From NCBI GenBank assembly GCA_964394425.1, contig CAYMXP010000003.1, positions 20,995 to 84,994 on the forward strand: a stretch of DNA of 64,000 nucleotides, read 5' to 3'. This DNA is from an uncultured Chryseobacterium sp. Its GTDB lineage: Bacteria; Bacteroidota; Bacteroidia; Flavobacteriales_F; PHOS-HE28. Under the pieces are notes generated by a model. It saw nothing but the letters and a program-made list of their open reading frames with translations. It searched no databases and was not told the origin of the DNA. Positions 2 to 60,067 of the stretch are shown here, piece by piece (position 1 is the first letter of the stretch; the number at the start of each line of letters is the position of its first letter). Made by a program: the position numbers and the translations under genes.

Positions 2-667
2 CATGCCTTCATCCTGAGCTACGCCCGCAAGCTGAACGTGCCCGGCCTGCGCGTGGGCGGCGATGCCAAGATCATCTACCGACGCGTGGGCGACTTCGCC
101 ACCGCCTGGGGCTTCGGCCTGGATGCCGCCGCGCAGTATGACCTGGACCAATGGCGCTTCGCCGCCGTGGCGCGAGACGTCACCGGCACCTTCAACGCAT
201 GGAGCTACACCCTGGACCAGCACACCATCGAGGTGTTCCAGCAGACGGCCAACGAACTGCCGGAGAACGGCGTGGAGGTGACCCTCCCGCGACTGGTGCT
301 GGGCGCGGCACGCGAGTTCAGGTTCGGTCCCAAGTTCGGCCTGGTCGCCGAGGTGGATCTGGAGAACACCTTCGACAAGGCGCGCAACACGGTGATCAGC
401 ACCGACACCTGGAGCGCCGACCCGCGCGTGGGCATCGAACTGGGCTATGCCGGCGTGGTCTTCGTGCGCATGGGGGTGAACAACATGCAGTACGTGCCGC
501 ACATCGACGGCAGCGAGACCCTGGCCGTGCAGCCCAACCTGGGCCTGGGCCTGAAGATCAAGAACGTGGCGCTGGACTATGCGTTGAGCCGCATCGCGGC
601 CACCGACGACGTGTTCAACAACGTCTTCTCCCTGCGCTTCGACCTGTTCAAGAAAGCCGCTTCATGA
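2..667 (+). CDS. PorV-like outer-membrane beta-barrel protein, C-terminal 221 aa only (5' end lies outside the window)
   Basis: The frame is open from the window edge to TGA 665-667. It shows an alternating beta-strand pattern, and its C-terminus (QPNLGLGLKIKNVALDYALSRI...NNVFSLRFDLF) resembles that of the PorV encoded at 38708-40015. Its stop overlaps the next start (ATGA). Confidence 0.6.
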   Translation, partial: HAFILSYARKLNVPGLRVGGDAKIIYRRVGDFATAWGFGLDAAAQYDLDQWRFAAVARDVTGTFNAWSYTLDQHTIEVFQQTANELPENGVEVTLPRLVLGAAREFRFGPKFGLVAEVDLENTFDKARNTVISTDTWSADPRVGIELGYAGVVFVRMGVNNMQYVPHIDGSETLAVQPNLGLGLKIKNVALDYALSRIAATDDVFNNVFSLRFDLFKKAAS

Positions 668-3600
668 AGCGAACCCTGCCGCCGGTCCTCTTCCTGCTAT
701 GCACCCCCTGGGCCAGCGCCCAGCCCTACGGGAACGAATGGATCAACTTCGGACGGCAGTACTGGCGCTTCGAGATCAGGAACGAGGGCATCTTCCGCAT
801 CGACAGTGCGGCGCTGGCCGCCGCCGGCTTTCCCGTTGGGGCCGTGGATCCCCGCGAGATCCAGCTCTTCAACCGCCAGAAGCAGGTGCCCCTGTACGTG
901 GAAGGCGAGTATGACGGCGCGTTCAATTCCACCGACTTCCTGGAGTTCCATGCGAAGGGCAACGACGCCTGGCTCGACGTGGGAATGTGGGACGATCCGG
1001 CGCACGTGAACAACCCCTACCACAGCCAGATCAACGACAGCATCCGCTTCTTTCTCACCTGGGCCGCCGCGCCGCAGACCCTGCGCGTGAAGCCGTACGC
1101 CAACCCCGATATCGGCAGCTACTTCGCCCGCGACTGGTTCGTGTGCGAAACCCACGGCCAGATCACCACCGCCTACCAGCGCGGCCAGCGCAACGAGGAC
1201 GACGCCACCAACGCGTGGATGGTGGAGGGAGAGGGATGGTTCAACGCATCCAACCTGTGCATCTCCGGCACCTGCTCGCAGACGGTTGATCTGCTCACCT
1301 ACGCGCCCTATCCCTCGATCGCCATGTGCCCCACCACCCTGGTGCTCGCCGGTGCGAACGCATCCGGGGCCGGGATGGTGCAGGACCACCACGTGAGGAT
1401 CCGCGGGGGGGCGGGGATGTTCCTCTATGCGGATACCATGTTCAAGGGCTACCAGTTGATGAAGTTCAATTTCCCCTTCTACCCCTCGGAACTCACGCAG
1501 CCCTATACCACCTTCAGCATGGACATCCTCCATGACATGGACTCCCTGATGGTGGATTATCCCGACCGGCAGGCGTTCTCCTGGCTGCGGTTGCTCTACC
1601 GCCGGCAGCCCAACATGGTGGGGCAGACCGAGTTGCACGTGTACCTGCCCGATGATCCCGGTGAGCCCGACGCGCTGTTCGACTTCTACAACTTCCCGGG
1701 CACGCCCGTGATGTACGTGTTCAACGGCGACACCGTGCGCCGCGTGGTGCCCATCTCCGATGCCGGCCATTGGAAGGGCCTGCTCCCCGCCGATCCGATG
1801 GGCGACACCACGCACGCCTACGTGTACACCCAGGCGAACATCGATACGATCACCGCGATCGAACCGGTGACCGCCTCGGGCTATTTCACCGACTTCGCAA
1901 CGGTGAACGGCGACAGCGCGTTGTTGATCGTGTCCGACGAGCTGTTGATGAACGGCGCGCTGCAATACGCCAGCTACCGCGAGACCAGCCAGGCGAACCC
2001 CATGCCCACGGTGGTGGCCGATGTGGACGAGCTATACGACCAGTATGGCGGGGGCGTCGAACGCCATCCATTGAGCATCAGGCGCTGGTGCGACCAGATG
2101 CAGGACCAGAGCACCGCGGATCCGCGGGGTCTGTTCCTGATCGGCAAGAGCGTGCAGGCGCCACGCGTGGGCACCGTGCCGGGCCATCGCATCCTGGCCG
2201 ATTCGCTCGGGCGCAAGCTGCTGCACGTGCCCACCTTCGGCTACCCGCCCAGCGACGTGTGCTTCACCCTGGGCCTGCAGGGCGACGACCGCATGATGGA
2301 GATCCCCGTCGGGAGGCTGGCCGCGCGCGACGAACAGGATGTGCTGGCCTACCTGGACAAGGTGCAGGTGTACGAGGGCTACCCGTTGCCCGAGAAATGG
2401 ATGAAGAACATCCTGCACTTCCGCGGGGGCTTCGACCCATCGGAGTGGGCGATGTTCGGCGCCGCGCTCAACTCCTTCAAGGTGCTGGCCGAGGATACCA
2501 GCTTCGCGGGGCGGGTGACCACCTTCGTGAAGAACGACGCGGGGATCCTGGACATGGCCTCGGCCGATTCGGTCCGCGCGTTCATCGAGGAAGGCGTGAC
2601 GTTGATGACCTTCTTCGCCCACGCCAGCGGAAGCGGTTTCGACATCAACATCGACGACGTGAACAACTACGAGTGGAACGGTCACTACCCCGCGGTGATC
2701 GGCAACTCGTGCTATGCCGGCAACCTGCACCTCACGGGTGTCCCCACCCCCAGCGAGGATTTCGTGCTCACCCCCGAGAAGGGTGCCATCGCCTTCCTGG
2801 CCAATGTGGATATCGGCTTCGCCACACCGCTGCAGCAGTACACCAGGGAGTATTACCGGAGTTTCAGCCAGGTGAACTACGGCGGCAGCATCGGCTCCCA
2901 CATGAAGCACGCGGTGTTCCAGCAGTTGAACACCAACTCGGACGTGATGAGCCTGAGCAACTGCCAGACTTTCACCCTGCACGGCGATCCCTCGCTGGTG
3001 ATGAACTCCTGGGACAAGGCCGACTTCCTGATCGAGGACCAGGACCTCATCCTGATCCCCGGCAACGTGACCGCCGACATCGACAGCTTCCAGGTGGCGG
3101 CCCACGTGCGCAACATCGGCCGCGGCACCAACCAGCCGGTGGTGGTGAGCCTGACCCGCACCCTGTCGAACGGCACATCGCTTCCCCCGAAGCTCGCCGA
3201 GGCGCAACTGCACTATGAGGACACGGTGACCTTCACCGTGCCGGTGATGGCCACCGAGAACGGCCTCGGTCAGAACCATCTCGAGGTGCGGGTGGACCTG
3301 GACCCCGATGAGATCGTGGAGCACGTGGAGGTGAACAACAACATCGCGGGCAGGAACGTGCAGATCAGCTCGGGCGACATCCTGCCGGTGTGGCCCTACG
3401 AGTTCGCCATCATCCCCGATGCCGCGCCGGTGCTCAAGGCGAGCACGGTGGATCCGCTCGCCCCGCCGCATGCCTTCGTGTTCCAGATCGACACCACCGA
3501 CAGCTTCGACAGCCCGGTGATGCAAGGCACCGTGATCAATGCCCCCGGCGGCGTGGTCAGCTGGTCCCCGCCCGGCATCTTCAGCCTGAACGCCACGCAG

Positions 3601-5763
3601 GACAGCACGGTGTTCTTCTGGCGGTGTTCGCGTGACAGCAGCGGCGGTGCGGGCTATCAATGGAACGAAAGCTCCTTCCAGTACATCGAGGACCGCGAAG
3701 GCTGGGGACAGGCGCACATCTTCCAGCGGAAGAACAACGCCTTCAATTCGTTGGTCTACGACAAGCCCGACCGCCGCACCGAGTTCTACCAGGGCCAGCA
3801 CAACATCCGCGCTTACGTGAAAGGCAACAGCTCGGGCACCGACAACAACCTGAGCGAATGGTACATCGACCTGGACTGGCAGGATGGCAACAACGGGTGC
3901 GGCAGCCCGGCGGCCTTCATGGTGTGCGTGGTCGACCCGGTGACCTTCGATGCGTGGGGCACGCCTTACATCGGCGAGAATCCCACCCACGACTTCGGCC
4001 AGCAGAACGCGCCCTCCTGCAGACCGCGCGTGGAGAACTTCTTCGTCTTCCGGCAGAACGTGGCGGACCAGATGGATTCGATGGCCATCATGTTGCAGAA
4101 CGAGATCCCGGACGGGCACTATGTCATCGTCTACACATGGAAGGATCTGTTCTTCGACGTGCTGGCCACCAGCGATCCGGACAATTCCGCCATCAATGCC
4201 ATGCTCGCCCTGGGCGCTCCGAACCTGACGAGCGCACCGGACAGCGTGCCGTACATCTTCTTCGTGAGGAAGGGTTATCCAGCCACGGCACAGGACACCA
4301 TCGGCGAGAACGTCAACTCGTACATCAACCTGAGCGTTTGGGTGGATTCACAGGGGAACGTGGGTCAGGAAGCCGCACCCTACGCCGGTCCGGCGCTCGA
4401 CTGGTCCGGGCTTTACTGGAACGAGGTTCCGATGAACGCCAACGACAGCACGCGGATCCGCGTGACGGGAAGGAACAATGTGGGCGCGCAGATCCCACTG
4501 ATGGACCTGGAGAGCCCGATGGATTCGCTGCCCACCCTGGGCGTCCTGATCGATCCGGCCGAGTATCCCTGGTTGAAGCTCAGCGGATGGTTTTTCGACT
4601 ACAACGAGCTCGATCCGGTGCCCGCGCAGCTGGAGCGCTGGCAATTGCTCTATGCGCCGGCGCCGGAAGCCGCCCTTGATCCACCGTCCGGTTACCACGA
4701 GCTGCTCGACAGCCTTTATGAAGGCACCCCTGGCCGGCTGGCCATCGCCGTGCGCAACATCAGCCCGGCCGACATGGACAGCATGCTGGTGACCGCCTGG
4801 GTGACCGACCGGAACAACGTGACCAGGCGCATCCATTACCGATACAATGCGCCGCTTCCGGTGGGCGCCGTGCTGATGGACACCATCATCGTGGAGACCG
4901 AGGGTCTGGCCGGTCTGAACCTGATCCGCATCGAAGCCAATCCGATCGATACGCTCACCGGCCTGTACGACCAGCTCGAGCAATACCATTTCAACAACAT
5001 CGCCGAGCTGCGCTTCGATGTGCTCGACGACGACGAGAACCCCGTGCTCGACGTGACCTTCGATGGCATCCACATCCTGGACAACGACGTGGTGAGCGCC
5101 CGGCCGGAGATCCAGATCACCCTGGACGACGACAACGAGGTGCTGCTGCTGGACGAGATCGCCGACACCTCGCGGTTCAGCGTCTACCTCACCGATCCCG
5201 ACGGGCACATCGACCAGATCCGCTTCATCGAGAACGGCCTGGAGAACCTGCAATGGGTGCCCGCCGACGGGCCTGATAACATCTGCAAGATCTTTTTCCG
5301 TCCGGTGCTCGACCGGGATGGCGTGTACGTGCTGCGCGTGCAGGGCAAGGACCTGAGCAACAACGATTCGGGCGACGAGGACTACGAAGTGCGCTTCGAG
5401 GTGGTCAACCGGCCCACCATCACCAACGTGCTGAACTATCCCAACCCCTTCACCACCAGCACGCGCTTCGTGTTCACCCTCACGGGTACGGAGATCCCCA
5501 CGGCGATGAAGATCCAGATCTACACCGTCAGCGGGCGCGTGATCCGAACGATCGACCTCATGGAGCTTGGACCGATCCACGTGGGCCGCAACATCACGAC
5601 CTACGCCTGGGACGGCACCGACGACTTCGGCGACAAGCTGGCCCGCGGGGTCTACCTCTACAAGGTGTACGCCCAGCTGCATGGCCAGGACATCGAGCAC
5701 CGGGAGACCGCGGCCGACGGCCACTTCACCAAGGGCTTCGGGAAGATGTACCTCCTGCGTTGA
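664..5763 (+). CDS. C25/gingipain-like cysteine peptidase family protein, PorU-like T9SS sortase paralog (1699 aa)
   Basis: ATG 664 gives the signal peptide MKRTLPPVLFLLCTPWASAQP. The track start at 151 is an in-frame upstream artefact. Candidate catalytic motifs are FFAHASG (His codon 2620-2622) and IGNSCYAG (Cys codon 2710-2712). The last ~100 aa (VLNYPNPFTTSTRFVF...AWDGTDDFGDKLARGVYLY) are homologous to the C-terminus of PorU at 34734-38645. Confidence 0.7.
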   Translation: MKRTLPPVLFLLCTPWASAQPYGNEWINFGRQYWRFEIRNEGIFRIDSAALAAAGFPVGAVDPREIQLFNRQKQVPLYVEGEYDGAFNSTDFLEFHAKGNDAWLDVGMWDDPAHVNNPYHSQINDSIRFFLTWAAAPQTLRVKPYANPDIGSYFARDWFVCETHGQITTAYQRGQRNEDDATNAWMVEGEGWFNASNLCISGTCSQTVDLLTYAPYPSIAMCPTTLVLAGANASGAGMVQDHHVRIRGGAGMFLYADTMFKGYQLMKFNFPFYPSELTQPYTTFSMDILHDMDSLMVDYPDRQAFSWLRLLYRRQPNMVGQTELHVYLPDDPGEPDALFDFYNFPGTPVMYVFNGDTVRRVVPISDAGHWKGLLPADPMGDTTHAYVYTQANIDTITAIEPVTASGYFTDFATVNGDSALLIVSDELLMNGALQYASYRETSQANPMPTVVADVDELYDQYGGGVERHPLSIRRWCDQMQDQSTADPRGLFLIGKSVQAPRVGTVPGHRILADSLGRKLLHVPTFGYPPSDVCFTLGLQGDDRMMEIPVGRLAARDEQDVLAYLDKVQVYEGYPLPEKWMKNILHFRGGFDPSEWAMFGAALNSFKVLAEDTSFAGRVTTFVKNDAGILDMASADSVRAFIEEGVTLMTFFAHASGSGFDINIDDVNNYEWNGHYPAVIGNSCYAGNLHLTGVPTPSEDFVLTPEKGAIAFLANVDIGFATPLQQYTREYYRSFSQVNYGGSIGSHMKHAVFQQLNTNSDVMSLSNCQTFTLHGDPSLVMNSWDKADFLIEDQDLILIPGNVTADIDSFQVAAHVRNIGRGTNQPVVVSLTRTLSNGTSLPPKLAEAQLHYEDTVTFTVPVMATENGLGQNHLEVRVDLDPDEIVEHVEVNNNIAGRNVQISSGDILPVWPYEFAIIPDAAPVLKASTVDPLAPPHAFVFQIDTTDSFDSPVMQGTVINAPGGVVSWSPPGIFSLNATQDSTVFFWRCSRDSSGGAGYQWNESSFQYIEDREGWGQAHIFQRKNNAFNSLVYDKPDRRTEFYQGQHNIRAYVKGNSSGTDNNLSEWYIDLDWQDGNNGCGSPAAFMVCVVDPVTFDAWGTPYIGENPTHDFGQQNAPSCRPRVENFFVFRQNVADQMDSMAIMLQNEIPDGHYVIVYTWKDLFFDVLATSDPDNSAINAMLALGAPNLTSAPDSVPYIFFVRKGYPATAQDTIGENVNSYINLSVWVDSQGNVGQEAAPYAGPALDWSGLYWNEVPMNANDSTRIRVTGRNNVGAQIPLMDLESPMDSLPTLGVLIDPAEYPWLKLSGWFFDYNELDPVPAQLERWQLLYAPAPEAALDPPSGYHELLDSLYEGTPGRLAIAVRNISPADMDSMLVTAWVTDRNNVTRRIHYRYNAPLPVGAVLMDTIIVETEGLAGLNLIRIEANPIDTLTGLYDQLEQYHFNNIAELRFDVLDDDENPVLDVTFDGIHILDNDVVSARPEIQITLDDDNEVLLLDEIADTSRFSVYLTDPDGHIDQIRFIENGLENLQWVPADGPDNICKIFFRPVLDRDGVYVLRVQGKDLSNNDSGDEDYEVRFEVVNRPTITNVLNYPNPFTTSTRFVFTLTGTEIPTAMKIQIYTVSGRVIRTIDLMELGPIHVGRNITTYAWDGTDDFGDKLARGVYLYKVYAQLHGQDIEHRETAADGHFTKGFGKMYLLR

Positions 5764-5828: not shown

Positions 5829-7556
5829 ATGATCCGCGCCACGCGCCGCAACGTCCTGCTCCTTTCGCTTTCCAGCGGCATCCTCTGGACGCTGGCCTGG
5901 CCGGCGACCTACACCGGTTTCACCCTGCTGGCTTTCGTGGCCTTCGTTCCCATGCTTTGGGCCGAGCGGTTGCACGATGCACGCACGGCCGCGCGCCCGC
6001 GCGCGTTCGCGCCGTATGCCATGGCGGGCCTGCTGCTCTGGAACGCCGCCACCACCTGGTGGCTGGGTGCCGTGAGCGAGCCCTGGGGCACCCGGATCTT
6101 CACGGGAGCAGGCCCGACCATCGGCAACACGTTGCTCATGGCGCTTCCCTGGGTGTTGAAGCGTTCGGTGTGGCGTCGCCTTGGGGAAGGTGCTTCGCTC
6201 TGGGGTCTGTTGTTCTTCTGGCTGGCGTTCGAGCGGCTGCACATGGATTGGGACCTCACCTGGCCGTGGCTCACGCTGGGCAACGTGTTCGCCGAACATC
6301 CGGCCTGGGTGCAGTGGTATGAGATCACGGGCCAGTTGGGGGGATCGTTGTGGGTCCTCGCGGTGAACATCGCCGTGTTCCGTGTGCTGGTGGCCTGGCA
6401 CAGCGGATCGGCCTTCGTGCAACGGCTCGCGGTCTTGGCGGCCCTGTTCGTCCTGCCCTTGGTCGCCTCGCTGGTGCGATACGCGCGGTATGAGCCGGCC
6501 GGAGAACCCATGGAGGTGGTGATCGTTCAGCCGAACGTCGATCCATATCTGGAGAAGTTCGGCGGCATCGATCCCCTCGAACAGCTCGATGGCATGCTCC
6601 AACTGGCCGGGAGTGCCATGACCCCGTCCACTGAACTGGTGATCCTGCCCGAAACGGCCTTGCAGGAGAACGCCACGGTGGAACGCGCACCGGACGGTCG
6701 GTTGCTCCTTCACGGGCTGTGGGAGAACGATCTTGCCGCCTCACGGAGCGTCCGGCGCATCCTGGACTTCCTTCATGAACATCCGCGGTGCGCGGTGCTC
6801 AGCGGCATGTCCAGCGCGTACCTCTATGGCCCTGGGGAGCAACTCCCGGTGGCCGCACGGCCGCTCGGCAATTCGGATCGATGGTTCGAGGCATACAACG
6901 CCGCCGTGCTGGTGGACGGGCAGGGCACCGTTCAGCCCTACCACAAATCCAAGCTCGTGGCCTTCGTGGAACTGATGCCCTTCGAGCGATGGCTTGGCCC
7001 GCTGCTCGATGGCGCGTCCGTGGACCTTGGCGGCACCACCGGCAGCCTGGGCGCGCAGGAGGAGCGCGAAGTGATGGCCTCGGCCGATGGCCGCGTGAAG
7101 GCCGCGCCCATCATCTGCTACGAATCGGTGTTCGGTGAGCACGTCGCGCGGCATGTGAGGAACGGCGCCACCCTGCTGGCCATCATGACCAACGATGGCT
7201 GGTGGGACGATGCACCGGGCTATCGGCAACACCTGCAGTACGGCCGCCTGCGAGCCGTCGAAACACGCCGCGCCATCGCCCGTGCCACCAATACGGGTAT
7301 CAGCTGTTTCATGGATCAGCGTGGCGACATCCACCAGGCCGCACCCTGGTGGGAACCGGCGGTGATCCGTGGCATCGTGTTGCTGAACGACCGGCTCACC
7401 TTTTTCGTGCGCCACGGCGATCTCATCGGTCGGGCCGCGATCGTTGCGGGAGGCGCGCTATTGTTCTGGAGCTTCTTCGCGGGCTTCCGACGGGTACGGA
7501 CGGCAAAGCATGGAGGACCGGGCAGAACGGTCGCGTCCGGGACCACGACCTCTTAA
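5829..7556 (+). CDS. lnt: apolipoprotein N-acyltransferase
   Basis: ATG at 5829. A multi-TM N-terminal half is followed by a CN-hydrolase domain with Glu/Lys/Cys motifs (ILPETAL, YHKSKLVAFVE, APIICYESVF). Confidence 0.9.
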   Translation: MIRATRRNVLLLSLSSGILWTLAWPATYTGFTLLAFVAFVPMLWAERLHDARTAARPRAFAPYAMAGLLLWNAATTWWLGAVSEPWGTRIFTGAGPTIGNTLLMALPWVLKRSVWRRLGEGASLWGLLFFWLAFERLHMDWDLTWPWLTLGNVFAEHPAWVQWYEITGQLGGSLWVLAVNIAVFRVLVAWHSGSAFVQRLAVLAALFVLPLVASLVRYARYEPAGEPMEVVIVQPNVDPYLEKFGGIDPLEQLDGMLQLAGSAMTPSTELVILPETALQENATVERAPDGRLLLHGLWENDLAASRSVRRILDFLHEHPRCAVLSGMSSAYLYGPGEQLPVAARPLGNSDRWFEAYNAAVLVDGQGTVQPYHKSKLVAFVELMPFERWLGPLLDGASVDLGGTTGSLGAQEEREVMASADGRVKAAPIICYESVFGEHVARHVRNGATLLAIMTNDGWWDDAPGYRQHLQYGRLRAVETRRAIARATNTGISCFMDQRGDIHQAAPWWEPAVIRGIVLLNDRLTFFVRHGDLIGRAAIVAGGALLFWSFFAGFRRVRTAKHGGPGRTVASGTTTS

Positions 7557-7606: not shown

Positions 7607-8959
7607 TCAATTCAACACGATGCGCCGGCTCATCACCGTTTCGCTGTTGCTGAGCCGCACCACGTACACGCCGGTCGCCAGCAGTTCCTTTTCCACCGGA
7701 AGGTGGGTGATGCCCATGTTGATCGCCTTGTTGGGCTGCATCACGATCACCTTGCCCTGGGCGTCCATCACCGTCAGGTCCATCACGGCCTCGAAGCTGC
7801 TGCTCACCACCACGTTCAGGTCCGAGCCATCGTCCCATGCGTTCACGATCTCGATCCCGCCGCCCGCTTCGCAGCCGGCCGCCACCATGTCGCTCGCGGT
7901 GCTGCCGCCATCAAGATCGGTCTGCACCAGGCGGTAGTAGGCCATGCCGGTGGGCGTGGGATCCACGAAGGCGTAGGTGATCGTCTCGATGCTGGTGCCC
8001 GCGCCATCCACCTCACCGATCGAATACCAATCCACCGCGTTGCCGCTCTTCTCGATGGTGAAGAAATCGTTGTCGTGCTCGGTGGCCGTGGTCCAGGTGA
8101 TGAGCACCTGGTCGTTCTCGCATTGGGCCCGGAAGTCGGTGAGTTCGATAGGCAGGGGATTGTTCTTGTCGGACAGGGTCCATGACCGGAAGAACTGCGC
8201 ACTGGTGATAACGGGTGTTTGAACACTGTTCAATGCTCCGCCATCGGTCCATGTGCTCAGGGGAGTGGGGAACAACACATCACCCCACTTGTTCAATGTG
8301 CTGTTGAACCGTTGGGGGTCCAATGGGGTGTTCCCGCCGATGAAGTTGCCACCGGTCACTTCCACGTCCGGGTAGAGGAAAAGCATAGAGGCATCCGGGT
8401 TCGTAGTGTAATTGTAACCCGCTGCCTTGGTATCAATGATCCAGAAGCGATCCACCACGTGGCCGGATTCATCCGGGGTGGGTACCGGGGTGGGAAGCAT
8501 TCCAGTGACGTAGTTGTTCATGTGCGTCACATCACTGGGGCGATAGTCGAAATTCCTCCATTCGCTCCCTGGTGTGGCTGGCAGCCCGGGCGGTTGTGGG
8601 ATGCCATCATAGCGGTACGTGGAAAAGACGACCGAAGCCGTGGCGCCACCGGCACCGGCGGTGGTCTTGTTGTAAGTCAATGGGATCTTCGTTCCAGCCG
8701 GGGTGGTGAACGGGACGATGTAGCCTGGCGCCACCGTGGTCCCGATCTGCCACCGAACGCGATCGGCTTCCCCTTCGGACAGGATGTTCCCCCCGTTGCC
8801 CATGGTGGTGATGGCGTTGGTGGCCGGGTTCTCCACCACGACCCAGGCGCCGTTATCGATCACCATCCAGATGTTGTTGTTCATCACCAGGCGCGCCTGG
8901 CCGAAGCTCAGGGCGGTGAAGGCGGTGAAGAAAAAGGACGCGAGTAGGGTTTTCTTCAT
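7607..8959 (-). CDS. secreted protein of unknown function with T9SS C-terminal sorting domain (450 aa)
   Basis: The internal ATG at 8959 gives the signal peptide MKKTLLASFFFTAFTALSFGQA; the track start at 9049 is GTG and upstream. The C-terminus (...LATGVYVVRLSNSETVMSRRIVLN) is a type-A-like T9SS CTD. The central part is visibly less GC-rich than its neighbours. Confidence 0.8.
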   Translation of the reverse strand: MKKTLLASFFFTAFTALSFGQARLVMNNNIWMVIDNGAWVVVENPATNAITTMGNGGNILSEGEADRVRWQIGTTVAPGYIVPFTTPAGTKIPLTYNKTTAGAGGATASVVFSTYRYDGIPQPPGLPATPGSEWRNFDYRPSDVTHMNNYVTGMLPTPVPTPDESGHVVDRFWIIDTKAAGYNYTTNPDASMLFLYPDVEVTGGNFIGGNTPLDPQRFNSTLNKWGDVLFPTPLSTWTDGGALNSVQTPVITSAQFFRSWTLSDKNNPLPIELTDFRAQCENDQVLITWTTATEHDNDFFTIEKSGNAVDWYSIGEVDGAGTSIETITYAFVDPTPTGMAYYRLVQTDLDGGSTASDMVAAGCEAGGGIEIVNAWDDGSDLNVVVSSSFEAVMDLTVMDAQGKVIVMQPNKAINMGITHLPVEKELLATGVYVVRLSNSETVMSRRIVLN

Positions 8960-8967
8960 GGCGGGAT

Positions 8968-8975
8968 CAAATTTA
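8968..8975 (-). promoter_or_regulatory. candidate Bacteroidota -7 promoter box TAAATTTG for the cargo gene
   Basis: Exact TAnnTTTG match on the minus strand. It lies 9 nt upstream of ATG 8959, which implies a leaderless or near-leaderless mRNA. Confidence 0.35.
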
Positions 8976-9157
8976 ACCCGGGTGTCAAGGAAAGCAACCC
9001 CCTGGGCCGCAACTTCCCCGGTCGCTGGTGTTCCTATCGGCAGGGCCACGATCGGTGATCTGGATGGATGATCTTGGAGCCTTGATCGAAGCTAAGACGC
9101 CCCCCGGCGTGGGCGGTTGCCGGGCGGGGATAATTTGGCCGTCCTGTTGATAAGTCC

Positions 9158-18861: not shown

Positions 18862-21800
18862 TCAGGCGTCCTTGCCGTGGCACTGCTTGTATTTCTTCCC
18901 GCTTCCACAGGGACAGGGATCGTTGCGGCCCACCTTCTTTTCGGTGCGCACCACCTGTTCCACGCGGCGCGGCGGACCTTGCGGGGGTACGGGGCCGCGC
19001 AGTGGCGCGCCACCCGAGGGACGCGGGGCTGCCGCGGTGGAGCGTGTTCCGGCGTATTGCGGCACCTCGGTGCGGCTGGTCTGCAGGCGCTGTTGAGGGG
19101 CGCGCGGGGCCTGGGCCTGTTGCACGTTCGGCTGCTGGGTGGGCAGGCCGGCGCGGGCCAGGAAGGTGATCACCTGCTCATTGATCCGGTCGATCATGGC
19201 CTTGAACAGGTTGAAGCTCTCCAGCTTGTAGATCAGCAGGGGATCCTTCTGCTCGATGGCCGCGTTCTGGACGCTGCGGCGCAGTTCGTCCATTTCACGC
19301 AAGTGCTCCTTCCATTCGTTGTCGATGATCGCCAGGGTGATGTACTTCTCGACGCTGTTCACCAGTTCGCGGCACTCGCTCTTGTAGCTCTTCTCCAGGT
19401 TGGCCACCACCTGCATGGTCTTCATGCCGTCGGTGATGGGCACCACGATGTTCTCGTATTGCGCGCCCTGGTTGAGGTACACGTCGCTGATCACCGGCAG
19501 GGCCTGGCGCGCGGTCTGGGCCATGCGCCGGTCATACGCCGCCAACGCGGCGTCGAACACCCGGTCGGCGATCTCGTTCGCCTTCATCGCCTTGAACTCC
19601 TCCTCGGCCACGGGCGATTCGATGAAGAGCTTGCGGTACAGGTCGAGCTGGAAACCGGCGAAGTCGCTTTCGTCATGGTAGCCGCCCACGATCGCGGTGC
19701 TCACGTCGTTGAACATGCTCAGGATGTCCAGCTTCAGGCGCTCGCCGAAGAGGGCGTGGTGGCGGCGGGTGTAGATCACGGTCCGCTGGCTGTTCATCAC
19801 GTCGTCGTACTCCAGGAGCCGCTTGCGGATGCCGAAGTTGTTCTCCTCCACCTTCTTCTGCGCGCGCTCGATGCTGCGCGTCACCATGCTGTGCTGGATC
19901 ACCTCGCCCTCCTTGAGGCCCAGGGTATCCATCAGCTTCGCGATGCGGTCGCTGCCGAACATGCGCATGAGGTCGTCCTCCAGGCTGATGTAGAACTGCG
20001 AGGAACCCGGATCGCCCTGGCGGCCCGAACGGCCGCGTAACTGGCGGTCCACCCGGCGGCTCTCGTGCTTTTCGGTGCCCACGATGGCCAGCCCCCCGGC
20101 GTCCTTCACGCCGGGCCCCAGTTTGATGTCGGTTCCCCGGCCGGCCATGTTGGTCGCGATGGTGACGGTGCCGGCCTGGCCGGCGTGCAGCACGATCTCC
20201 GCCTCGCGCTGGTGCTGTTTCGCGTTGAGCACGTTGTGGTCGATGTTCTTGCCGGCGAGCATGCGGCTCATCAGCTCGCTCACCTCCACGCTCGTGGTGC
20301 CCACGAGCACGGGGCGGCCGGCTTCCTTGAGCTTCACGATCTCGTCGATCACCGCGCCGTACTTCTCACGCTTGGTCTTGAACACCATGTCCTCGTGATC
20401 GTTCCTGATCACCGGCCGGTTGGTGGGAATGACCATCACGTCCAGCTTGTAGATGTCCCAGAGCTCCTGTGCCTCGGTCTCCGCCGTGCCGGTCATGCCC
20501 GCCAGCTTGTGGTACATGCGGAAGTAGTTCTGCAGGGTGATGGTGGCGTAGGTCTGCGTGGCGGCCTCCACCTTCACCTTTTCCTTGCTTTCGATGGCCT
20601 GGTGCAGGCCGTCGCTGTAACGACGCCCTTCGAGGATCCGCCCGGTCTGCTCGTCCACGATCTTGACCTTGCCGTCCATCACCACGTATTCCACGTCCTT
20701 GTCGTAGAGCGCGTAGGCGCGGATCAGTTGGTTCACGGTATGCACGCGCTCGCTCTTGATGCCGAAATCGCGCAGCAGTTCATCCTTCTGTCGGGCCTTT
20801 TCCTCCAGCGATCCACCGCTCTTTTCGATCTCGGCGATCGCCGCGCCCACGTCGGGCAGGATGAAGAATCGCGGGTCGTTCACGTCGCCGCTGATCAGGT
20901 CCACGCCTTTTTCGGTCAGTTCGATGCCGTGGTGCTTCTCGTCGATCACGAAGAAGAGTTCCTGGTCCACCTTGGGCATCTCCTTGCCCTGGTCCTGCAG
21001 GTAATGGTTCTCGGTCTTTTGCAGCAGCGCCTTCACGCCGGGTTCGCTGAGGAATTTGATCAGGGCGGTGTTCTTGGGAAGACCGCGATGGGCGCGCAAC
21101 AGGGCCATGCCGCCGCGCTCCACTTCCTCCTTTGACGCGGTGCCCGCGTCCAGGCCTTTCAAAGCGTCCTTCGCCTCGGCCAGCAGCTTGGTGACCAGTT
21201 GACGCTGCGCGCCATAAAGCCGCTCCACGCGCGGCTTGTACTCGTCGAACTGGTGGACCTCGCCCTTGGGCGTGGGGCCGCTGATGATCAGCGGGGTGCG
21301 CGCGTCGTCCACCAGCACGCTGTCCACCTCATCCACGATGGCGAAGTGGTGCTTGCGCTGCACCAGCGCGTTGGGCGCATGGGCCATGTTGTCGCGCAGG
21401 TAATCGAAGCCGAACTCGTTGTTGGTGCCGAAGGTGATGTCGGCCAGGTAGGCGTTGCGCCGTTCGGTGCTGTTGGGCTGGTGCTTGTCGATGCAGTCCA
21501 CGCGCAGACCGTGGAACTCGTAGATCGGCCCCATCCACTCACTGTCGCGCTTGCTCAGGTAGTCGTTCACCGTCACCACATGCACGCCCCGGCCGGCCAG
21601 GGCGTTGAGGTATACGGGGAGGGTGGCCACGAGCGTCTTGCCCTCACCGGTGCCCATCTCGGCGATCTTGCCCTGGTGCAGCGCGATGCCGCCGATCAGC
21701 TGCACGTCGTAATGCACCATGTCCCAGGTCACGGGGTTGCCGGCGGCGATCCAGCTGTTCTTCCACACCGCGTCATCCCCGTCGATCACGATGCTTTCAC

Positions 21801-22230
21801 GTTTCGCCGCCAGTTCACGGTCCAGGTCGGTGGCGCGCACGCGCACTTCGCTGTTTTCCTTGAAGCGCCGGGCCGTTTCCTTCACCACGGCGAACGCCTC
21901 GGGAAGCACCTCCAGCAATTCCTTCTCGATCTCCTTCACCATCTCCGCCTCCAGCGCGTCGATCTTCTGGTATCGCTCTTCACGCGCGTGGATGTCCATT
22001 TTCGGATCGGCATCGATCTCCGACCGCAGGGTCTCCACCTGCGCCTGTTCGTCCTTGATCCGCTCGCGGATGCGGGCCTTGAGGTCCAGGGTGCGCTGGC
22101 GCAATTCGTTGTTGGAGATGCCTTCCAGCTTGAGGAACGCATCTTTCACGTGTTCCACCAGGGGCTGGACTTCTTTCAGGTCTCGCTGGCCCTTGTCGCC
22201 GAAGACCTTCTTGATGATGTTGCCGAGCAT
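18862..22230 (-). CDS. secA: preprotein translocase ATPase SecA
   Basis: 1122 aa with DEAD-like motor motifs ([24 protein letters not shown]) and the C-terminal zinc motif [14 protein letters not shown]. Confidence 0.97.
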
Positions 22231-24593: not shown

Positions 24594-24668
24594 GGAAGCA
24601 TAGCTCAGCTGGTTCAGAGCATCTGCCTTACAAGCAGAGGGTCACTGGTTCGAATCCAGTTGCTTCCA
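24594..24668 (+). tRNA. tRNA-Val, anticodon TAC
   Basis: Hand-folded cloverleaf: acceptor GGAAGCA/TGCTTCC, D stem GCTC/GAGC, anticodon stem TCTGC/GCAGA with loop CTTACAA, T arm ACTGG-TTCGAAT-CCAGT. 75 nt; CCA not encoded. Confidence 0.92.
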
Positions 24669-24714
24669 CTTCGTCCGTCGGGACCTGGGGCGAAGGCGGG
24701 CATGGTGTTCTTTC

Positions 24715-24735: not shown

Positions 24736-24810
24736 GGGACGCTAGCTCAGCTGGTTCAGAGCGCATGCTTCACACGCATGAGGTCACTGGTTCGACTCCA
24801 GTGCGTCCCA
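24736..24810 (+). tRNA. tRNA-Val, anticodon CAC
   Basis: Hand-folded cloverleaf: acceptor GGGACGC/GCGTCCC, anticodon stem CATGC/GCATG with loop TTCACAC, T arm ACTGG-TTCGACT-CCAGT. 75 nt, followed by an encoded CCA (24811-24813). Confidence 0.92.
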
Positions 24811-24813
24811 CCA

Positions 24814-33549: not shown

Positions 33550-33569
33550 GGGCGCGATGGTTCGTTGGT

Positions 33570-34733: not shown

Positions 34734-37700
34734 ATGGCAAAGCTGAAGTTCCCCTGCCTGGCGCTGGTGTTGTCCGCCACCGCTTCCTTCAACGCCAGTG
34801 CCCAGCGCGTCATTTCCTTCACCCTCGAACGCACCGACCGGCCCAAGGAGGTCGGCGACCTCAGGCGGGCCGGTGCGGAGGAAGCCTTGTGGTTCAAGGG
34901 GGCGCACGTTGACCTGGACCGTGGGGAGCTTCCTTTCCACCATGCCTCGGTGGAGTTGGGACCTTCGGCGACCTCCTTCACGGCCGAGCTGACCGAGGCA
35001 CGCTATGGCGCGTTGACCCCGGCCGAGGTTGACGCCCTGCCTGCGCTGGCCAAGGTCGATGGCGACCCGGAGATCACCACCCGCCTCTCGTGGTACCGCA
35101 AGAAGCCCGTTGCCCTGATCGACCTGTATCCCTACCGGCTGAACCCGGCCACCCGCCAGGTCGAACTGCTGCTGTCGGCCAGGATCCTTGTTCATGAGAA
35201 GAAGGGGGACCGTGGCGGCCACAAGGCGAACGTTTATCCGGACCATTCCCGTCTTGCCACCGGCGATTGGTATCGGTTCTCCGTGGTGGAAGACGGGGTA
35301 TACAAGCTGGACCATTCCTTCCTCCAGGAGCTGGGCGTGGAGATGAACGCACTTGCTTCAGACCAGATCAACATCTATGGCAACCACACCGGCCAGCTGC
35401 CATACAAGAACACCGGGCAGCCCCCGACGGACCTTGAACTGAACGCCATTGAAGTGGTGGACGGCGGCGATGGGCAGTTCGGGCCCAACGACCACCTGCT
35501 TTTCTATGCCACGGGCGCCCAACGCTGGGTGCTGGACGACGATGAGCCGCTGTTCCGGCACGTGAAGAACGTGTACACCGATTCGGCCGTGTACTTCATC
35601 GGCATCGGCACCGATCCGCCCATGCGCATCGCCGATGCGGCGCTTTCCTCCGATCCAGCCACGCACCAGGTGACGGCGTTCAACGACCGGGGCTTCATCG
35701 AACACGATGCGGTGAACCTGATCAAGAGCGGGAGGGAGTTCTTCGGCGAGGTCTTCGACATGGTGGATGTGTACAACTACAACTTCAGCTTTCCCTACCT
35801 GCGGAGCGACGAACCGGTGACGGCCATCCTCGCCGGGGCGGCCCGGACCGTGGGAAGCGCGACCAGTTCCTTCAGCTGGACGATCGGATCCTCTCCCCCC
35901 GGCAGCGCCACGATCCCGGGGATCGGCTACGGCTATACGGCGGCCTATGCGCTCCCCTTCGATGACACGATCTCTTTCTACAGTTCCTCGTCCACCCTGC
36001 CCATCACCGTCACCTTCCAGCCCTACGACCCCATCACCTCCATCGGCTGGGCGAACTACCTGGAGGTGAACGTGCGACGCGACCTGAAATTCACCGGCGA
36101 TCAGATGGCCTTCCGCGACCTGCCTTCGGTGGGTGTGGGGAACGTGGCCGAGTTCACCCTGGACCTGGCCTCCAACGTGCATCGCATCTGGGAGATCACC
36201 GATCCGACCCGGGTGCGCAACGTGCCGTTCACCGACGCGGGTTCGACCAAGAGCTTCCGCGTGGCCAGCGACAGCCTGCGGCAGTTCATCGCCTTCCGCG
36301 ATGCGGATCACCTGGAGCCCACCGCGATCGGCCGGGTGCCCAACCAGGACCTGCATGGGATCCAGAACCCGGTGGACCTGGTGATCGTCAGCCATCCGGA
36401 CTTCCTCTCCGATGCACAACGGCTTGCCACCCGGCGGGAAGGCGAAGGCATGAGCGTGCATCTGCTCACCCCCCAGCAGGTGTTCAATGAATTCTCCGGT
36501 GGCGCGCGCGATGCCACGGCCATCAAGCGACTGATGAAGATGTTCTACGACCGGGCCGGCGCGGACAGCACCCTGTTCCCGCGGTACCTGCTCCTCTTCG
36601 GCGATGGCTCATACAACAACCTTTCGCTCTCCAGCCACAACCAGAACATGGTGCCCACCTACCAGACGGCCGACTCATGGAACCTGTCCAAATCCTACAC
36701 CTCCGACGACTACTTCGGCCTGCTCGATGATGCGGAGGGGGAGGCCGCGGGCGACCTGCTGGACATTGGCGTGGGGCGCCTGGTGGCCAGCAGCAGGGAA
36801 CAGGCGGGCGAACTCGTGGACAAGATCCTGGGCTACGACCGGCTGGCCCTGTTGAGCACGCCGGAAGCTTCATGCAACACCGGAGGGGATGGCGGAGCGA
36901 GCGACTGGCGCACCTGGGTGGTGTTCTGCTCCGATGACCAGGAAGGCGATGGCTTCGAGGGCACCATTCACATGTCGCAGAGCGATCAGCTGGCCACCAC
37001 CCTTCCGATCAGCGTGGAGAACGACCACCCGGAACTCAACGTCGTGAAGATCTACCTCGATGCCTACCAGCAGTTCAGCACACCCGGTGGGGAGCGGTAT
37101 CCCGATGCGGAGGCCGAGCTGCGCGACCGGGTGCAGAAGGGCGTGCTGGTGGTGAACTACATCGGGCACGGTGGCGAGGTGGGCTGGGCACATGAGCGGC
37201 TGCTGGACAACAGCACCATCCTGGGCTGGACCAACTTCGAGCGGCTGCCCCTGTTCATGACCGCCACCTGCGAGTTCACCCGGTGGGACGACCCGGCGCG
37301 CACCTCGGCGGGCGAATACGTGGTGCTGAACCCGAACGGCGGTGGCGTGGCCCTGATGAGCACCACGCGCCTGGCCTATTCCAACGCCAACTTCGCCCTC
37401 TCGCAGGATTTCTACACGCACGTTTTCAGCAAGACCGATGAACTGGGCCGCACCCAGTGCCTGGGCGATGTGTACCGGCAGACCAAACGCGACGCCACCA
37501 CCGCCAGCCAGACCAACCACCGCGTGTTCATGCTCCTGGGCGATCCGAGCATGCGCCTGGCACAGACCCGCATGCGGGTGATCACCACGGCGGTGACCGA
37601 CACGCTGGGCAATGCCATGGACACCCTCGGGGCGCTGGCCACCGTGCGCGTGAACGGCATCGTGGCCGATGAAGGCGGCGGCCAGCTGACGGACTTCAAC

Positions 37701-38645
37701 GGCATCGTGATCCCCACCGTCTTCGACAAGCGCAGCAACCAGAGCACGCTGGCCAACGATGGCGGCAATCCCTTCAACTTCACCGTGCGCAAGAACATCC
37801 TCTATCGCGGCAAGGCCACGGTGAGCGGCGGCGCCTTCCATTTCACCTTCGTGGTGCCCAAGGACATCGCCTACCAGGTGGGCCCGGGACGCATCAGCTA
37901 CTACGCCGAAAGCAACGCCACCAACGCCGGCGGCTACACGCACGACCCGCTGGTGGGCGGCACGGCCGATGGCGTGGCCGATGACGTGACCGGCCCGACG
38001 ATCGGCCTGTTCATGAACGACGACCGCTTCGTGCCCGGCGGCATCACCAACGAGGATCCGCTGCTGTTCGCCAAGCTCTTCGATCAGAACGGCATCAACA
38101 CCACGGGCAACAGCATCGGGCACGATCTCGTGGCCGTCCTGGATGCCGAAACCGAGAACGAGGTCGTGTTGAACGACCACTACGAGGCCGATCTGGACAC
38201 CTACCAGAGCGGGAAGGTGCGCTACCGCTACAGCGACCTGGCCGAGGGCAGCCACACGCTCACCTTGAAGGCATGGGACGTGTACAACAATTCCTCCATC
38301 CGGACCACCGAATTCGTGGTGGCCTCCAGCGAGGAACTCGCCTTGGAGCACGTGCTGAACTATCCCAACCCCTTCACCACCCACACCGAGTTCTTCTTCG
38401 AGCACAACCGACCCTGCTCCACGCTCGACGTGCAGGTGCAGGTGTTCACCGTGGCCGGCCGCCTGGTGAAGACCATCGACCGCATGCTCACCTGCGAAGG
38501 GTTCCGCGCCGAGCCGCTGGCTTGGGACGGCCTGGACGATGCCGGCGACAAGCTGGGCCGCGGGGTGTACGTCTACCGGTTGAAAGTGGCGACGCCCGAG
38601 GGCGACAAAGCCGAGAAATTCGAGAAGCTTGTGATCCTGCGCTGA
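34734..38645 (+). CDS. porU: T9SS sortase PorU (C25-like cysteine peptidase, 1303 aa)
   Basis: ATG 34734 (34731 is TTG). Signal peptide, then His motif NYIGHGG (codon 37167-37169) and Cys motif TATCEF (codon 37269-37271). It has a PorU-type C-terminal domain and is immediately followed by porV. Confidence 0.85.
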   Translation: MAKLKFPCLALVLSATASFNASAQRVISFTLERTDRPKEVGDLRRAGAEEALWFKGAHVDLDRGELPFHHASVELGPSATSFTAELTEARYGALTPAEVDALPALAKVDGDPEITTRLSWYRKKPVALIDLYPYRLNPATRQVELLLSARILVHEKKGDRGGHKANVYPDHSRLATGDWYRFSVVEDGVYKLDHSFLQELGVEMNALASDQINIYGNHTGQLPYKNTGQPPTDLELNAIEVVDGGDGQFGPNDHLLFYATGAQRWVLDDDEPLFRHVKNVYTDSAVYFIGIGTDPPMRIADAALSSDPATHQVTAFNDRGFIEHDAVNLIKSGREFFGEVFDMVDVYNYNFSFPYLRSDEPVTAILAGAARTVGSATSSFSWTIGSSPPGSATIPGIGYGYTAAYALPFDDTISFYSSSSTLPITVTFQPYDPITSIGWANYLEVNVRRDLKFTGDQMAFRDLPSVGVGNVAEFTLDLASNVHRIWEITDPTRVRNVPFTDAGSTKSFRVASDSLRQFIAFRDADHLEPTAIGRVPNQDLHGIQNPVDLVIVSHPDFLSDAQRLATRREGEGMSVHLLTPQQVFNEFSGGARDATAIKRLMKMFYDRAGADSTLFPRYLLLFGDGSYNNLSLSSHNQNMVPTYQTADSWNLSKSYTSDDYFGLLDDAEGEAAGDLLDIGVGRLVASSREQAGELVDKILGYDRLALLSTPEASCNTGGDGGASDWRTWVVFCSDDQEGDGFEGTIHMSQSDQLATTLPISVENDHPELNVVKIYLDAYQQFSTPGGERYPDAEAELRDRVQKGVLVVNYIGHGGEVGWAHERLLDNSTILGWTNFERLPLFMTATCEFTRWDDPARTSAGEYVVLNPNGGGVALMSTTRLAYSNANFALSQDFYTHVFSKTDELGRTQCLGDVYRQTKRDATTASQTNHRVFMLLGDPSMRLAQTRMRVITTAVTDTLGNAMDTLGALATVRVNGIVADEGGGQLTDFNGIVIPTVFDKRSNQSTLANDGGNPFNFTVRKNILYRGKATVSGGAFHFTFVVPKDIAYQVGPGRISYYAESNATNAGGYTHDPLVGGTADGVADDVTGPTIGLFMNDDRFVPGGITNEDPLLFAKLFDQNGINTTGNSIGHDLVAVLDAETENEVVLNDHYEADLDTYQSGKVRYRYSDLAEGSHTLTLKAWDVYNNSSIRTTEFVVASSEELALEHVLNYPNPFTTHTEFFFEHNRPCSTLDVQVQVFTVAGRLVKTIDRMLTCEGFRAEPLAWDGLDDAGDKLGRGVYVYRLKVATPEGDKAEKFEKLVILR

Positions 38646-38707: not shown

Positions 38708-40015
38708 ATGCGGCTCCCTTCCCTTGCAGCCACCGCTGCGGCCCTGTTCCTGTGTTGCGCCGCTGGATCCTCGGTCCATGCCCAGTTGAACCAGGATTGC
38801 CTGGAGGCCATCGGCGGGCAGGAGTGCGGCGACCAGCTCAACACCATCACCACCGCGGTGCCCTTCCTGATGATCGGGCCGGACTCCCGCGCCGGCGGCA
38901 TGGGCGACGCGGGCGTGGCCATCTCGCCCGATGTGAACGCCATCCATTGGAACCCCTCCAAGCTGGCCTTCGCCGAGACCGACGGGGAGCTGAGCATCTC
39001 CTATTCCCCCTGGTTGCGCAACCTGGTGCCCGATATGAGCCTCGCTTACCTGGCGGGCTTCAAGAAGCTGGAGAACAAGCGCAGCGCCATCGGCGGTTCG
39101 CTGCGCTATTTCAACCTGGGCAACATCACCTTCACGGACTTCAATGGCGCGGTGATCCGCGACTTCCAACCGACGGAATTCGCCGTGGACCTGACCTTCT
39201 CCCAGAAGTTCAGCGACCTGGTGGGCGGCGGCATCTCGATCCGGTACATCAACAGCAACCTCACCGGGGGGATCAGCGTGCAGGGCGCCAGCAGCAAGCC
39301 GGGTCAGAGCATCGCCGCCGACGTGTCCTTTTTCTACCGCAAGGAGCAGATCCCCCTGGGCGACAAGGACGCCACCTTCGCCTTCGGCACCAACATCTCG
39401 AACATCGGCGCCAAGATGAGCTACACGGAGACGGCGGAAAAGGATTTCATCCCCATCAACCTGCGGCTGGGCCCGTCCTTCACCATCGATCTTGACGAAT
39501 ACAACCAGATCGGCTTCAACCTGGACATCAACAAGCTGCTGGTGCCCACCCCGCCGGTGTACCTGCTGGACACCGATGGCGTGGTGGTGTTCGACACCAT
39601 CGCCAACGAATTCGCCATCGCCAGCGGCATGGATCCCGACGTGGCCGTGGCGCAGGGCATGATCCAATCGTTCTACGACGCCCCCGGCAACGTGTATTAC
39701 GACGAGGCCGGCAACGTGCATGTGGAGGACGGAAGCAGGATGCGCGAGGAATTCCGTGAGATCAACCTGGCCGGTGGCTTCGAGTACTGGTACGCGCAAC
39801 AGTTCGCCTTCCGCACCGGCTACTTCTGGGAGCACGCCACCAAGGGCAACCGCAAGTACTTCACCATGGGCCTGGGGGTGCGCTTCAACATCTTCCAGAT
39901 CGACCTCAGCTACCTGATCGCCAATACCAACCAGAGCCCGCTGGCCAACACGTTGCGCTTCAGCCTGGGCTTCAAGTTCGACGACAAGGCCCGCAAGAAA
40001 GAGACGGTGGAATGA
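38708..40015 (+). CDS. porV: T9SS outer-membrane shuttle protein PorV
   Basis: ATG 38708 gives the signal peptide MRLPSLAATAAALFLCCAAGSSVHAQ. Conserved block AVPFLMIGPDSRAGGMGDAGVA. An alternative in-frame ATG at 38645 overlaps the porU stop. Confidence 0.85.
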   Translation: MRLPSLAATAAALFLCCAAGSSVHAQLNQDCLEAIGGQECGDQLNTITTAVPFLMIGPDSRAGGMGDAGVAISPDVNAIHWNPSKLAFAETDGELSISYSPWLRNLVPDMSLAYLAGFKKLENKRSAIGGSLRYFNLGNITFTDFNGAVIRDFQPTEFAVDLTFSQKFSDLVGGGISIRYINSNLTGGISVQGASSKPGQSIAADVSFFYRKEQIPLGDKDATFAFGTNISNIGAKMSYTETAEKDFIPINLRLGPSFTIDLDEYNQIGFNLDINKLLVPTPPVYLLDTDGVVVFDTIANEFAIASGMDPDVAVAQGMIQSFYDAPGNVYYDEAGNVHVEDGSRMREEFREINLAGGFEYWYAQQFAFRTGYFWEHATKGNRKYFTMGLGVRFNIFQIDLSYLIANTNQSPLANTLRFSLGFKFDDKARKKETVE

Positions 40016-59663: not shown

Positions 59664-60067
59664 TCAGTCGCGTTTCACGAAGCGCCGGCTGATCACCTCG
59701 CGTTCGTTGCCGATGCGCAACACGTACATCCCCGCGTTCAGGTCATGCACGCCCATGCGCCATTCGTTCAAGCCGGGTGCCACGGGCAGCGCCACGCGCC
59801 GCACCACTTTCCCATCGAGGGCCGTGATGCTCACGTCCACCGTTCCGCCCCGCTCGCTCACGAAGCTGGTGGTGAGCAGGTCGCTGGCCGGGTTGGGGAA
59901 CACGGCGAGGCCATGCAGCGCGCTCTCCTCTTCGATGCCGCCGATGATCACCGGCTGCATCACGTTGATGGTGAAGCCCGAGCGGTCGTCGTTGTGCTGC
60001 GCGAAGCCGTTGTACATCCCCAGCGAATCGATCGAGACCGTGTCGCAATGGGTGCTGGTGCAGCCGA
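59664..60067. repeat. 404-bp segment identical to 57893-58296
   Basis: See the partner repeat. The offset between the copies is 1771 bp. Confidence 0.85.

Follow-up and report, generated by a model that had tools for sequence, protein, structure and literature searches.

The accepted model for type IX secretion systems (T9SS) has a single sortase, PorU, and a single shuttle, PorV; canonical PorU cuts the C-terminal domains (CTDs) from cargo proteins, transfers the new C-terminus to anionic lipopolysaccharide (A-LPS), keeps its own CTD and binds PorV. Whether one genome may carry a second pair of this kind, and what such a pair would do, is the question raised by two overlapping genes at the left edge of a 64,000-nt stretch of DNA from an uncultured Chryseobacterium sp. 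(contig CAYMXP010000003.1; in the following, the window), which has a G+C content of 64%. The initial annotation, made from the letters alone, had read these genes as a divergent PorV-like and PorU-like pair additional to the canonical one. Their products are here assigned to PorU2/PorV2, a curated family of putative function. The locus is composed of the following features.

2..667, + strand: porV2, 3′ part, encoding a PorV/PorQ-family outer-membrane beta-barrel (221 C-terminal codons and stop)
664..5763, + strand: porU2, encoding a predicted secreted C25-family cysteine peptidase, paralogue of PorU (1699 aa; NF052324, Pfam PF01364)
664..720, + strand: predicted PorU2 signal peptide (aa 1-19), MKRTLPPVLFLLCTPWASA, followed by QPYGNEW
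721..1923, + strand: PorU2 N-terminal beta-sandwich region (aa 20-420; BLASTP against PorU, AlphaFold2 (AF2) and Foldseek)
1924..3000, + strand: C25 catalytic domain (aa 421-779; Pfam PF01364 positions 2-373 of 374)
2620..2622, + strand: codon of catalytic His653, in FFAHASG (alignment and conservation)
2710..2712, + strand: codon of catalytic Cys683, in IGNSCYAG (alignment and conservation)
3004..5418, + strand: PorU2-specific array (aa 781-1585; AF2 model and family-wide search)
5419..5763, + strand: PorU2 CTD (aa ~1586-1699), T9SS type-A-like (BLASTP against the PorU CTD, TIGR04183, FlgD_ig)

The frame at 2-667 (+) is open from the window edge to a TGA stop, and the translated porV2 fragment of 221 residues ends in ...NNVFSLRFDLFKKAAS followed by the stop. 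This stop overlaps the start of porU2 in the tetranucleotide ATGA at 664-667, and both the overlap and the 1699-aa signal-peptide ORF behind it lie where the initial annotation had placed them. Gln20 (721-723), the predicted mature N-terminus of PorU2 (cleavage between ASA and Q), shows a conservation of at least 98% across 66 homologues, and the PorV2 consensus likewise has AQ at its predicted cleavage site. Both predicted termini would fit the Q-rule, i.e. the N-terminal pyroglutamate on secreted proteins of Bacteroidota.

The C25-like core that had been proposed for the larger protein was identified both by the family model and by Pfam. PorU2 scored 631.7 bits (cutoff 450) on NF052324, 'putative type IX secretion system sortase PorU2', with residues 9-892 covering model positions 8-879 of 879, and aa 421-779 matched Peptidase_C25 (PF01364) with an E-value of 2.4e-51 and 175.6 bits (cutoff 23). 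On the canonical PorU model NF033707 the protein reached 161.3 bits in three stretches (cutoff 420), and judged by its sequence PorU2 is a paralogue of PorU, not an orthologue. At the C-terminus, the type-A sorting domain TIGR04183 passed marginally on residues 1592-1669 (24.8 bits, cutoff 23), a match that is backed by homology to the PorU CTD (E 3e-18), and FlgD_ig was found with an E-value of 4.8e-7. With 1699 aa, a middle region fixed in position and a PorU-type CTD, the protein has the architecture of the family (~1650-1740 aa), and its best database relative, besides its own sequence, is 56% identical. It is thus a further member of a family with an existing curated name. The label PorU2/PorV2, which the initial annotation had already suggested, is that of the NCBIfam models NF052324 and NF052325, and RefSeq gives the product name 'putative type IX secretion system sortase PorU2' to proteins of Taibaiella koreensis and T. 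helva. Since these models and names exist, PorU2/PorV2 is already known as a kind, and the presence of the pair is no discovery in itself.

The assignment of the barrel stood as to family, and the similarity first quoted for it carried little weight by itself. The porV2 fragment matched NF052325, 'putative type IX sorting system protein PorV2', with 272.8 bits and an E-value of 3.6e-81 over model positions 139-353 of 354, staying under the cutoff of 325 because the ~140 N-terminal residues of the protein fall beyond the left edge of the window. On the PorV/PorQ subfamily model NF033709 the truncated fragment scored 26.8 bits (E 3.6e-6, cutoff 90). Full-length PorV2 orthologues, of which the closest (locus L001) is 74% identical to the fragment, scored 436-488 bits on NF052325 (L001, 488) and 97.6-107.6 bits on NF033709 (L001, 107.6), above the cutoffs of 325 and 90, respectively. 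The same orthologues reached 29-44 bits on the PorV equivalog NF033710 (cutoff 250) and 52-80 bits on the PorQ equivalog NF033711 (cutoff 220); by score, PorV2 is neither PorV nor PorQ and is somewhat nearer to PorQ. The higher PorQ scores suggest that PorV2 may be a static, PorQ-like anchor rather than a shuttle. A profile of 45 PorV2 sequences matched PorV of Flavobacterium johnsoniae (PDB 6H3I_F) with an E-value of 8e-7, and a profile search for PorV2 relatives returned close Flavobacteriales relatives only among the 120 matches listed. The C-terminal resemblance between PorV2 and the PorV of the window, on which the PorV-like reading had been founded, is no evidence in itself: pairwise BLASTP gave no significant similarity (best E 0.11; C-terminal segment E 1.7), and the family assignment was therefore made by profile models. 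BamG, a FadL-like barrel associated with the BAM machinery of Bacteroidota (NF053685, cutoff 250), was tried as an identity for the barrel and rejected, as it gave no more than a trace match of 15.5 bits in one orthologue.

The canonical pair is encoded farther along the same strand of the window.

34734..38645, + strand: canonical porU (NF033707, 1228.7 bits, cutoff 420)
38708..40015, + strand: canonical porV (NF033710, 449.6 bits, cutoff 250; Pfam PF19572, E 5e-62)

Canonical PorU matched Porphyromonas gingivalis PorU (PDB 6ZA2) with an E-value of 1.4e-128 in phmmer. Because the canonical genes are present in the same window, the porV2-porU2 pair is additional and not a replacement. The two pairs differ in gene order, porU then porV in the canonical pair and porV2 then porU2 in the new one, and PorU2 exceeds the PorU of the window by 396 aa; both the inversion and the excess, put initially at ~400 aa, had been noticed at the outset. 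Directly upstream of canonical porU-porV, gldJ was identified in divergent orientation at 31789-34143 (-) with TIGR03524 (460.8 bits).

Homology between PorU2 and the PorU of the window was found in two blocks by BLASTP. The C-terminal block, aa 1542-1699 of PorU2 (158 aa), was 33% identical (E 3e-18), and bears out the shared C-terminus recognised earlier. The second block aligned PorU2 33-780 with PorU 179-942 at 21% identity (E 3e-11) and paired FFAH with YIGH and NSC with ATC. In the PorU of the window, the corresponding dyad codons lie at 37167-37169 (His, IGHGG) and 37269-37271 (Cys, TATCEF), and reading of the codons gave the spacings predicted for the two proteins, 30 residues between His653 and Cys683 in PorU2 and 34 in PorU. 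Upstream of the catalytic domain, PorU2 aa 20-420 is homologous to PorU aa ~179-550 and is all-beta in the AF2 model.

That the candidate His and Cys correspond to the C25/PorU dyad was confirmed by more distant comparison and by conservation. Single-sequence phmmer of PorU2 against the PDB gave no match, and a 20-sequence PorU2 profile matched P. gingivalis PorU 6ZA2 alone (E 1.6e-18), with His653 placed on 6ZA2_A His655 and Cys683 on 6ZA2_A Cys688. Assuming a numbering offset of +2, 6ZA2_A Cys688 would be native Cys690, the position of the published 'porU catalytic mutant C690A' of P. gingivalis (PMC5562754). His653, Cys683 and the motif G774-D775-P776 showed no variation when 66 distinct full-length PorU2 sequences, which share 26-56% identity with that of the window, were aligned (66/66).

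A model of PorU2 residues 1-900 was obtained by AF2 (predicted local distance difference test, pLDDT, 85.7; predicted template modelling score, pTM, 0.86). In Foldseek its best match was again PorU 6ZA2 (E 1e-31, ~1000 aligned columns, template modelling score, TM, 0.45), followed by RgpB (E 5e-21, target TM 0.64-0.66) and Kgp (E 3e-17). By sequence profile and by predicted fold together, PorU2 is nearer to PorU than to the gingipains. Conservation within PorU2 is highest over the last ~250 aa, which take in the CTD, where the mean column conservation is 0.64-0.70; this is more in keeping with a docking domain that the protein keeps than with a signal that is removed.

Between the catalytic domain and the CTD, aa 781-1585 of PorU2 were modelled as a chain of beta-sandwich domains with one mixed alpha/beta domain at ~aa 1080-1200 (AF2 model of residues 781-1699, pLDDT 86.1); the equivalent position in PorU holds ~220 aa, compared with ~800 aa in PorU2. 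Pfam returned CARDB alone on this array, sub-threshold at E 0.002, the first sandwich domain being weakly CARDB-like. Foldseek with the C-terminal 919 aa gave generic tandem beta-sandwich matches (TM 0.10-0.17), namely complement C3/C5, alpha-2-macroglobulin and CD109, which offer no functional clue, and PorU appeared at rank 38. Aa 901-1550 were also searched against 1.84 billion representatives of clusters at 50% identity, and 1371 proteins matched at E≤1e-10, 759 of them at E≤1e-30. Among the best 150 matches, the full-length ones carry the array at the same position (~aa 830-1590), mostly in proteins of ~1600-1750 aa, and the shorter entries resemble fragments. The constant position in full-length relatives shows the insert to be fixed in place and specific to this family, which is a large one.

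Homologues of PorU2 at 46-56% identity came from uncultured Flavobacteriales throughout. In a scan of one genome per GTDB species, full-length PorU2 was found in Flavobacteriales, including metagenome-assembled genomes (MAGs) labelled Vicingaceae and Cryomorphaceae, and in Chitinophagales, including Saprospiraceae and Chitinophagaceae; the cultured carriers were Taibaiella koreensis and T. lutea. Gene linkage was counted in 68 non-redundant loci in which 1.3 kb or more of sequence precedes PorU2, and orthologous loci supplied the upstream context of the pair in the window. In 54/68 loci, of both orders, PorV2 is the gene immediately upstream of PorU2 and on the same strand, and in 28 of these 54 the two genes overlap by 4 or 1 nt, so that the expected co-occurrence, followed from PorU2 to PorV2, extends over two orders of Bacteroidota. 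In 2/68 loci PorV2 lies ~4.9 kb upstream, since a second PorU2 copy intervenes. When all ORFs of 84 loci were clustered, no third gene was conserved across the whole distribution. The pair is best explained as a module of two genes, porV2 and porU2, that is complete in itself and a paralogue of porU/porV (and porQ).

Variation in copy number and integrity of PorU2 was observed in several loci. Two full-length tandem PorU2 genes behind a single PorV2 were found in some Chitinophagales/Saprospiraceae (L052:1772-12914, L068:1858-12911, L072:7968-17941), one example being an Edaphocola MAG with the order PorV2, PorU2a (1620 aa), PorU2b (1678 aa). In three MAG loci (L031, L045, L058) PorU2 is split over two ORFs, which may be due to assembly frameshifts or pseudogenisation.

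Two further genes accompany the pair, mainly on the Flavobacteriales side of the distribution. The first follows porU2 in the window after 65 bp on the same strand.

5829..7556, + strand: lnt, apolipoprotein N-acyltransferase, context only (TIGR00546, 238 bits, cutoff 132.9)

The lnt gene was found within a few kb downstream of PorU2 in 22 loci, directly downstream in most, even in distant ones such as L017 (35% PorU2 identity) and L032 (32%), and was absent from the Chitinophagales loci examined. The second encodes a CDP-alcohol phosphatidyltransferase (Pfam PF01066, E 2e-16) and was seen in 31 loci in divergent orientation upstream of porV2 (in L001 at 8070-8810, minus strand); it probably also lies just beyond the left edge of the window. 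Right after lnt, a type-A CTD protein is encoded at 7607-9049 (-) (TIGR04183, 27.8 bits), and another at 59664-61415 (-) (34.8 bits); both are candidates for local cargo. Loci L001-L004 have a minus-strand gene of similar size (424-460 aa) at the place equivalent to 7607-9049, without a Pfam match. NF052323, the M6-like inactivated metalloprotease family of the adjacent NCBIfam accession, was considered as linked cargo and was adjacent in no locus examined. The 1121-aa ORF of the window, which had been considered for the same family, is instead a long SecA (18862-22230, minus strand; NF009536, 1815 bits), which carries a metal-binding SEC-C/SWIM motif at its C-terminus. Elsewhere in the window, an adjoining tRNA-Val pair is located at 24594-24669 and 24736-24813 (+), with the anticodons TAC and CAC.

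That the locus encodes a genuine and functional PorU2/PorV2 pair is very probable. As to its role, PorU2 probably is, by analogy, a CTD peptidase or transpeptidase that PorV2 keeps tethered at the surface, and the narrower proposal that it acts specifically as a second sortase stands at about even chances. The analogy is with PorU and PorZ, which keep their CTDs and are held at the surface by PorV and PorQ (PMC5562754), and on this precedent PorU2 would be exported by the T9SS, keep its CTD and be tethered by PorV2. In the steps envisaged, the Sec machinery would export PorU2 by means of its signal peptide, leaving the predicted mature N-terminal Gln, and the T9SS would carry it over the outer membrane via the PorU-type CTD. 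The CTD would be retained and not cleaved, as in PorU and PorZ, and would dock PorU2 on PorV2, its cognate barrel of the 14-strand type, so that a PorU2:PorV2 complex would be tethered at the surface. The His653/Cys683 dyad would then serve as a CTD signal peptidase, possibly a transpeptidase, on a subset of T9SS cargo outside the range of canonical PorU, and the ~800-aa beta-sandwich array may provide reach or recognition of substrate or acceptor. The parallel route of cargo processing put forward in the initial annotation is likewise a putative one.

Several observations weigh against this proposal. PorU attachment in P. gingivalis requires PorZ and PorQ, and so the absence of a PorZ-like partner linked to the PorU2/PorV2 pair counts against it; likewise, neither a cargo class of its own nor a separate CTD subtype came to light. 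PorV2 was missing within ±8 kb of PorU2 in 12/68 loci, mostly of Saprospiraceae, and some genomes have tandem PorU2 copies behind one PorV2, so that 1:1 pairing is not universal; the 12 loci may be dispersed second copies. Neither the N-terminal 140 residues of PorV2 nor the promoter lies inside the window. Finally, among 8.3 million full texts no paper was found that uses the names PorU2/PorV2 or describes a PorU paralogue, and none gave experimental data on any member of the family, in agreement with the initial annotation, which knew of no characterisation; such matches as there were came from superscripted reference numbers or from other uses of the terms.

The main alternative makes PorU2 an end product in its own right: a surface protease or adhesin that is secreted by the T9SS, has a partner barrel dedicated to it and would act on substrates in the environment or on the cell's own surface instead of on the CTDs of other cargo. 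This is possible, if rather unlikely. The translationally coupled two-gene arrangement mirrors the cargo/anchor pairs known for type-B CTD proteins (PMC9143113), a long beta-sandwich stalk is typical of surface-displayed enzymes and adhesins, and the C25 family includes digestive proteases, the gingipains; the missing PorZ-like partner and distinct cargo set also suit an end product. What speaks against PorU2 as an end product is that its homology to PorU continues beyond the catalytic domain into the N-terminal domains and the CTD, that PorU is the best match in sequence and fold, ahead of the gingipains, and that PorV2 belongs to the PorV/PorQ family and not to PorP/SprF.

PorU2/PorV2 could otherwise be a redundant or condition-specific back-up that shares both the type-A cargo and the acceptor of PorU/PorV. 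In favour of this reading, the common catalytic dyad and CTD type and the type-A CTD cargo encoded nearby could be cited. We consider this improbable: divergence is strong (21% core identity, 161 bits on the PorU model with its cutoff of 420), the ~800-aa insert is fixed and family-specific, and the family persists across two orders, all of which, taken together, favours a separate function under selection over redundancy. To a bolder extension of the proposed role we give a similarly small probability, namely that PorU2:PorV2 is an autonomous second attachment machine, in which PorV2 would be the PorQ-like anchor, the ~800-aa beta-sandwich/alpha-beta array would take the place of PorZ in presenting the acceptor, and a dedicated cargo subset would be joined to a surface acceptor other than A-LPS; that this acceptor may be a lipid is very weakly hinted at by the operonic lnt and the divergent CDP-alcohol phosphatidyltransferase of the Flavobacteriales clade. 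A catalytically dead structural paralogue serving as pseudo-peptidase scaffold, brought to mind by the 'inactivated' T9SS-dependent metalloprotease family NF052323 and favoured by nothing specific, is highly implausible given that His653, Cys683 and the G-D-P motif are invariant in 66/66 sequences down to 26% identity.

A second pair with an invariant dyad is present in hundreds of environmental lineages of Flavobacteriales and Chitinophagales, in at least 759 clusters at 50% identity, and its conservation implies cargo processing or surface display outside the models drawn from P. gingivalis and F. johnsoniae. The existence of the pair is unlikely to surprise a T9SS specialist, and the value of the window is confirmatory, in that a single genome shows PorU2/PorV2 beside the canonical pair. 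Family size and the invariant dyad make the function of PorU2/PorV2 a tractable question, and the cultured hosts T. koreensis and T. lutea make it tractable genetically.

Compared with known systems, the likeness to type-B CTD cargo with a PorP/SprF-like barrel, e.g. SprB/SprF, is an organisational analogy only, consisting in a large secreted protein encoded beside a dedicated barrel; the barrel of PorU2 is of the PorV/PorQ and not the PorP/SprF type, and its CTD is type-A/PorU-like and not TIGR04131. The gingipains RgpB and Kgp have the fold of the catalytic domain in common with PorU2 (TM 0.59-0.66, normalised to the gingipain), whereas they were not matched significantly by sequence when the PDB was searched with the profile, their flanking domains are unlike those of PorU2, and the CTD of PorU2 is of the PorU type. 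With PorV (6H3I chain F) and PorQ, the anchor of PorZ, the PorV2 orthologues share the subfamily model NF033709. PorU itself (PG0026, 6ZA2, and the PorU of the window) has the same N-terminal beta-sandwich domains, followed by a C25 domain with the His/Cys dyad, and a CTD with NYPNPF...GVY.Y motifs in both proteins; PorU2 differs in lacking the first ~170 aa of PorU, in the extra ~800 aa of beta-sandwich domains between catalytic domain and CTD, and in being encoded downstream of its barrel gene, whereas porU is upstream. Closest of all are the NCBIfam PorU2/PorV2 proteins named in RefSeq for Taibaiella, a family whose own name carries the word 'putative': the proteins of the window match them in length, architecture and gene order, with no architectural difference.

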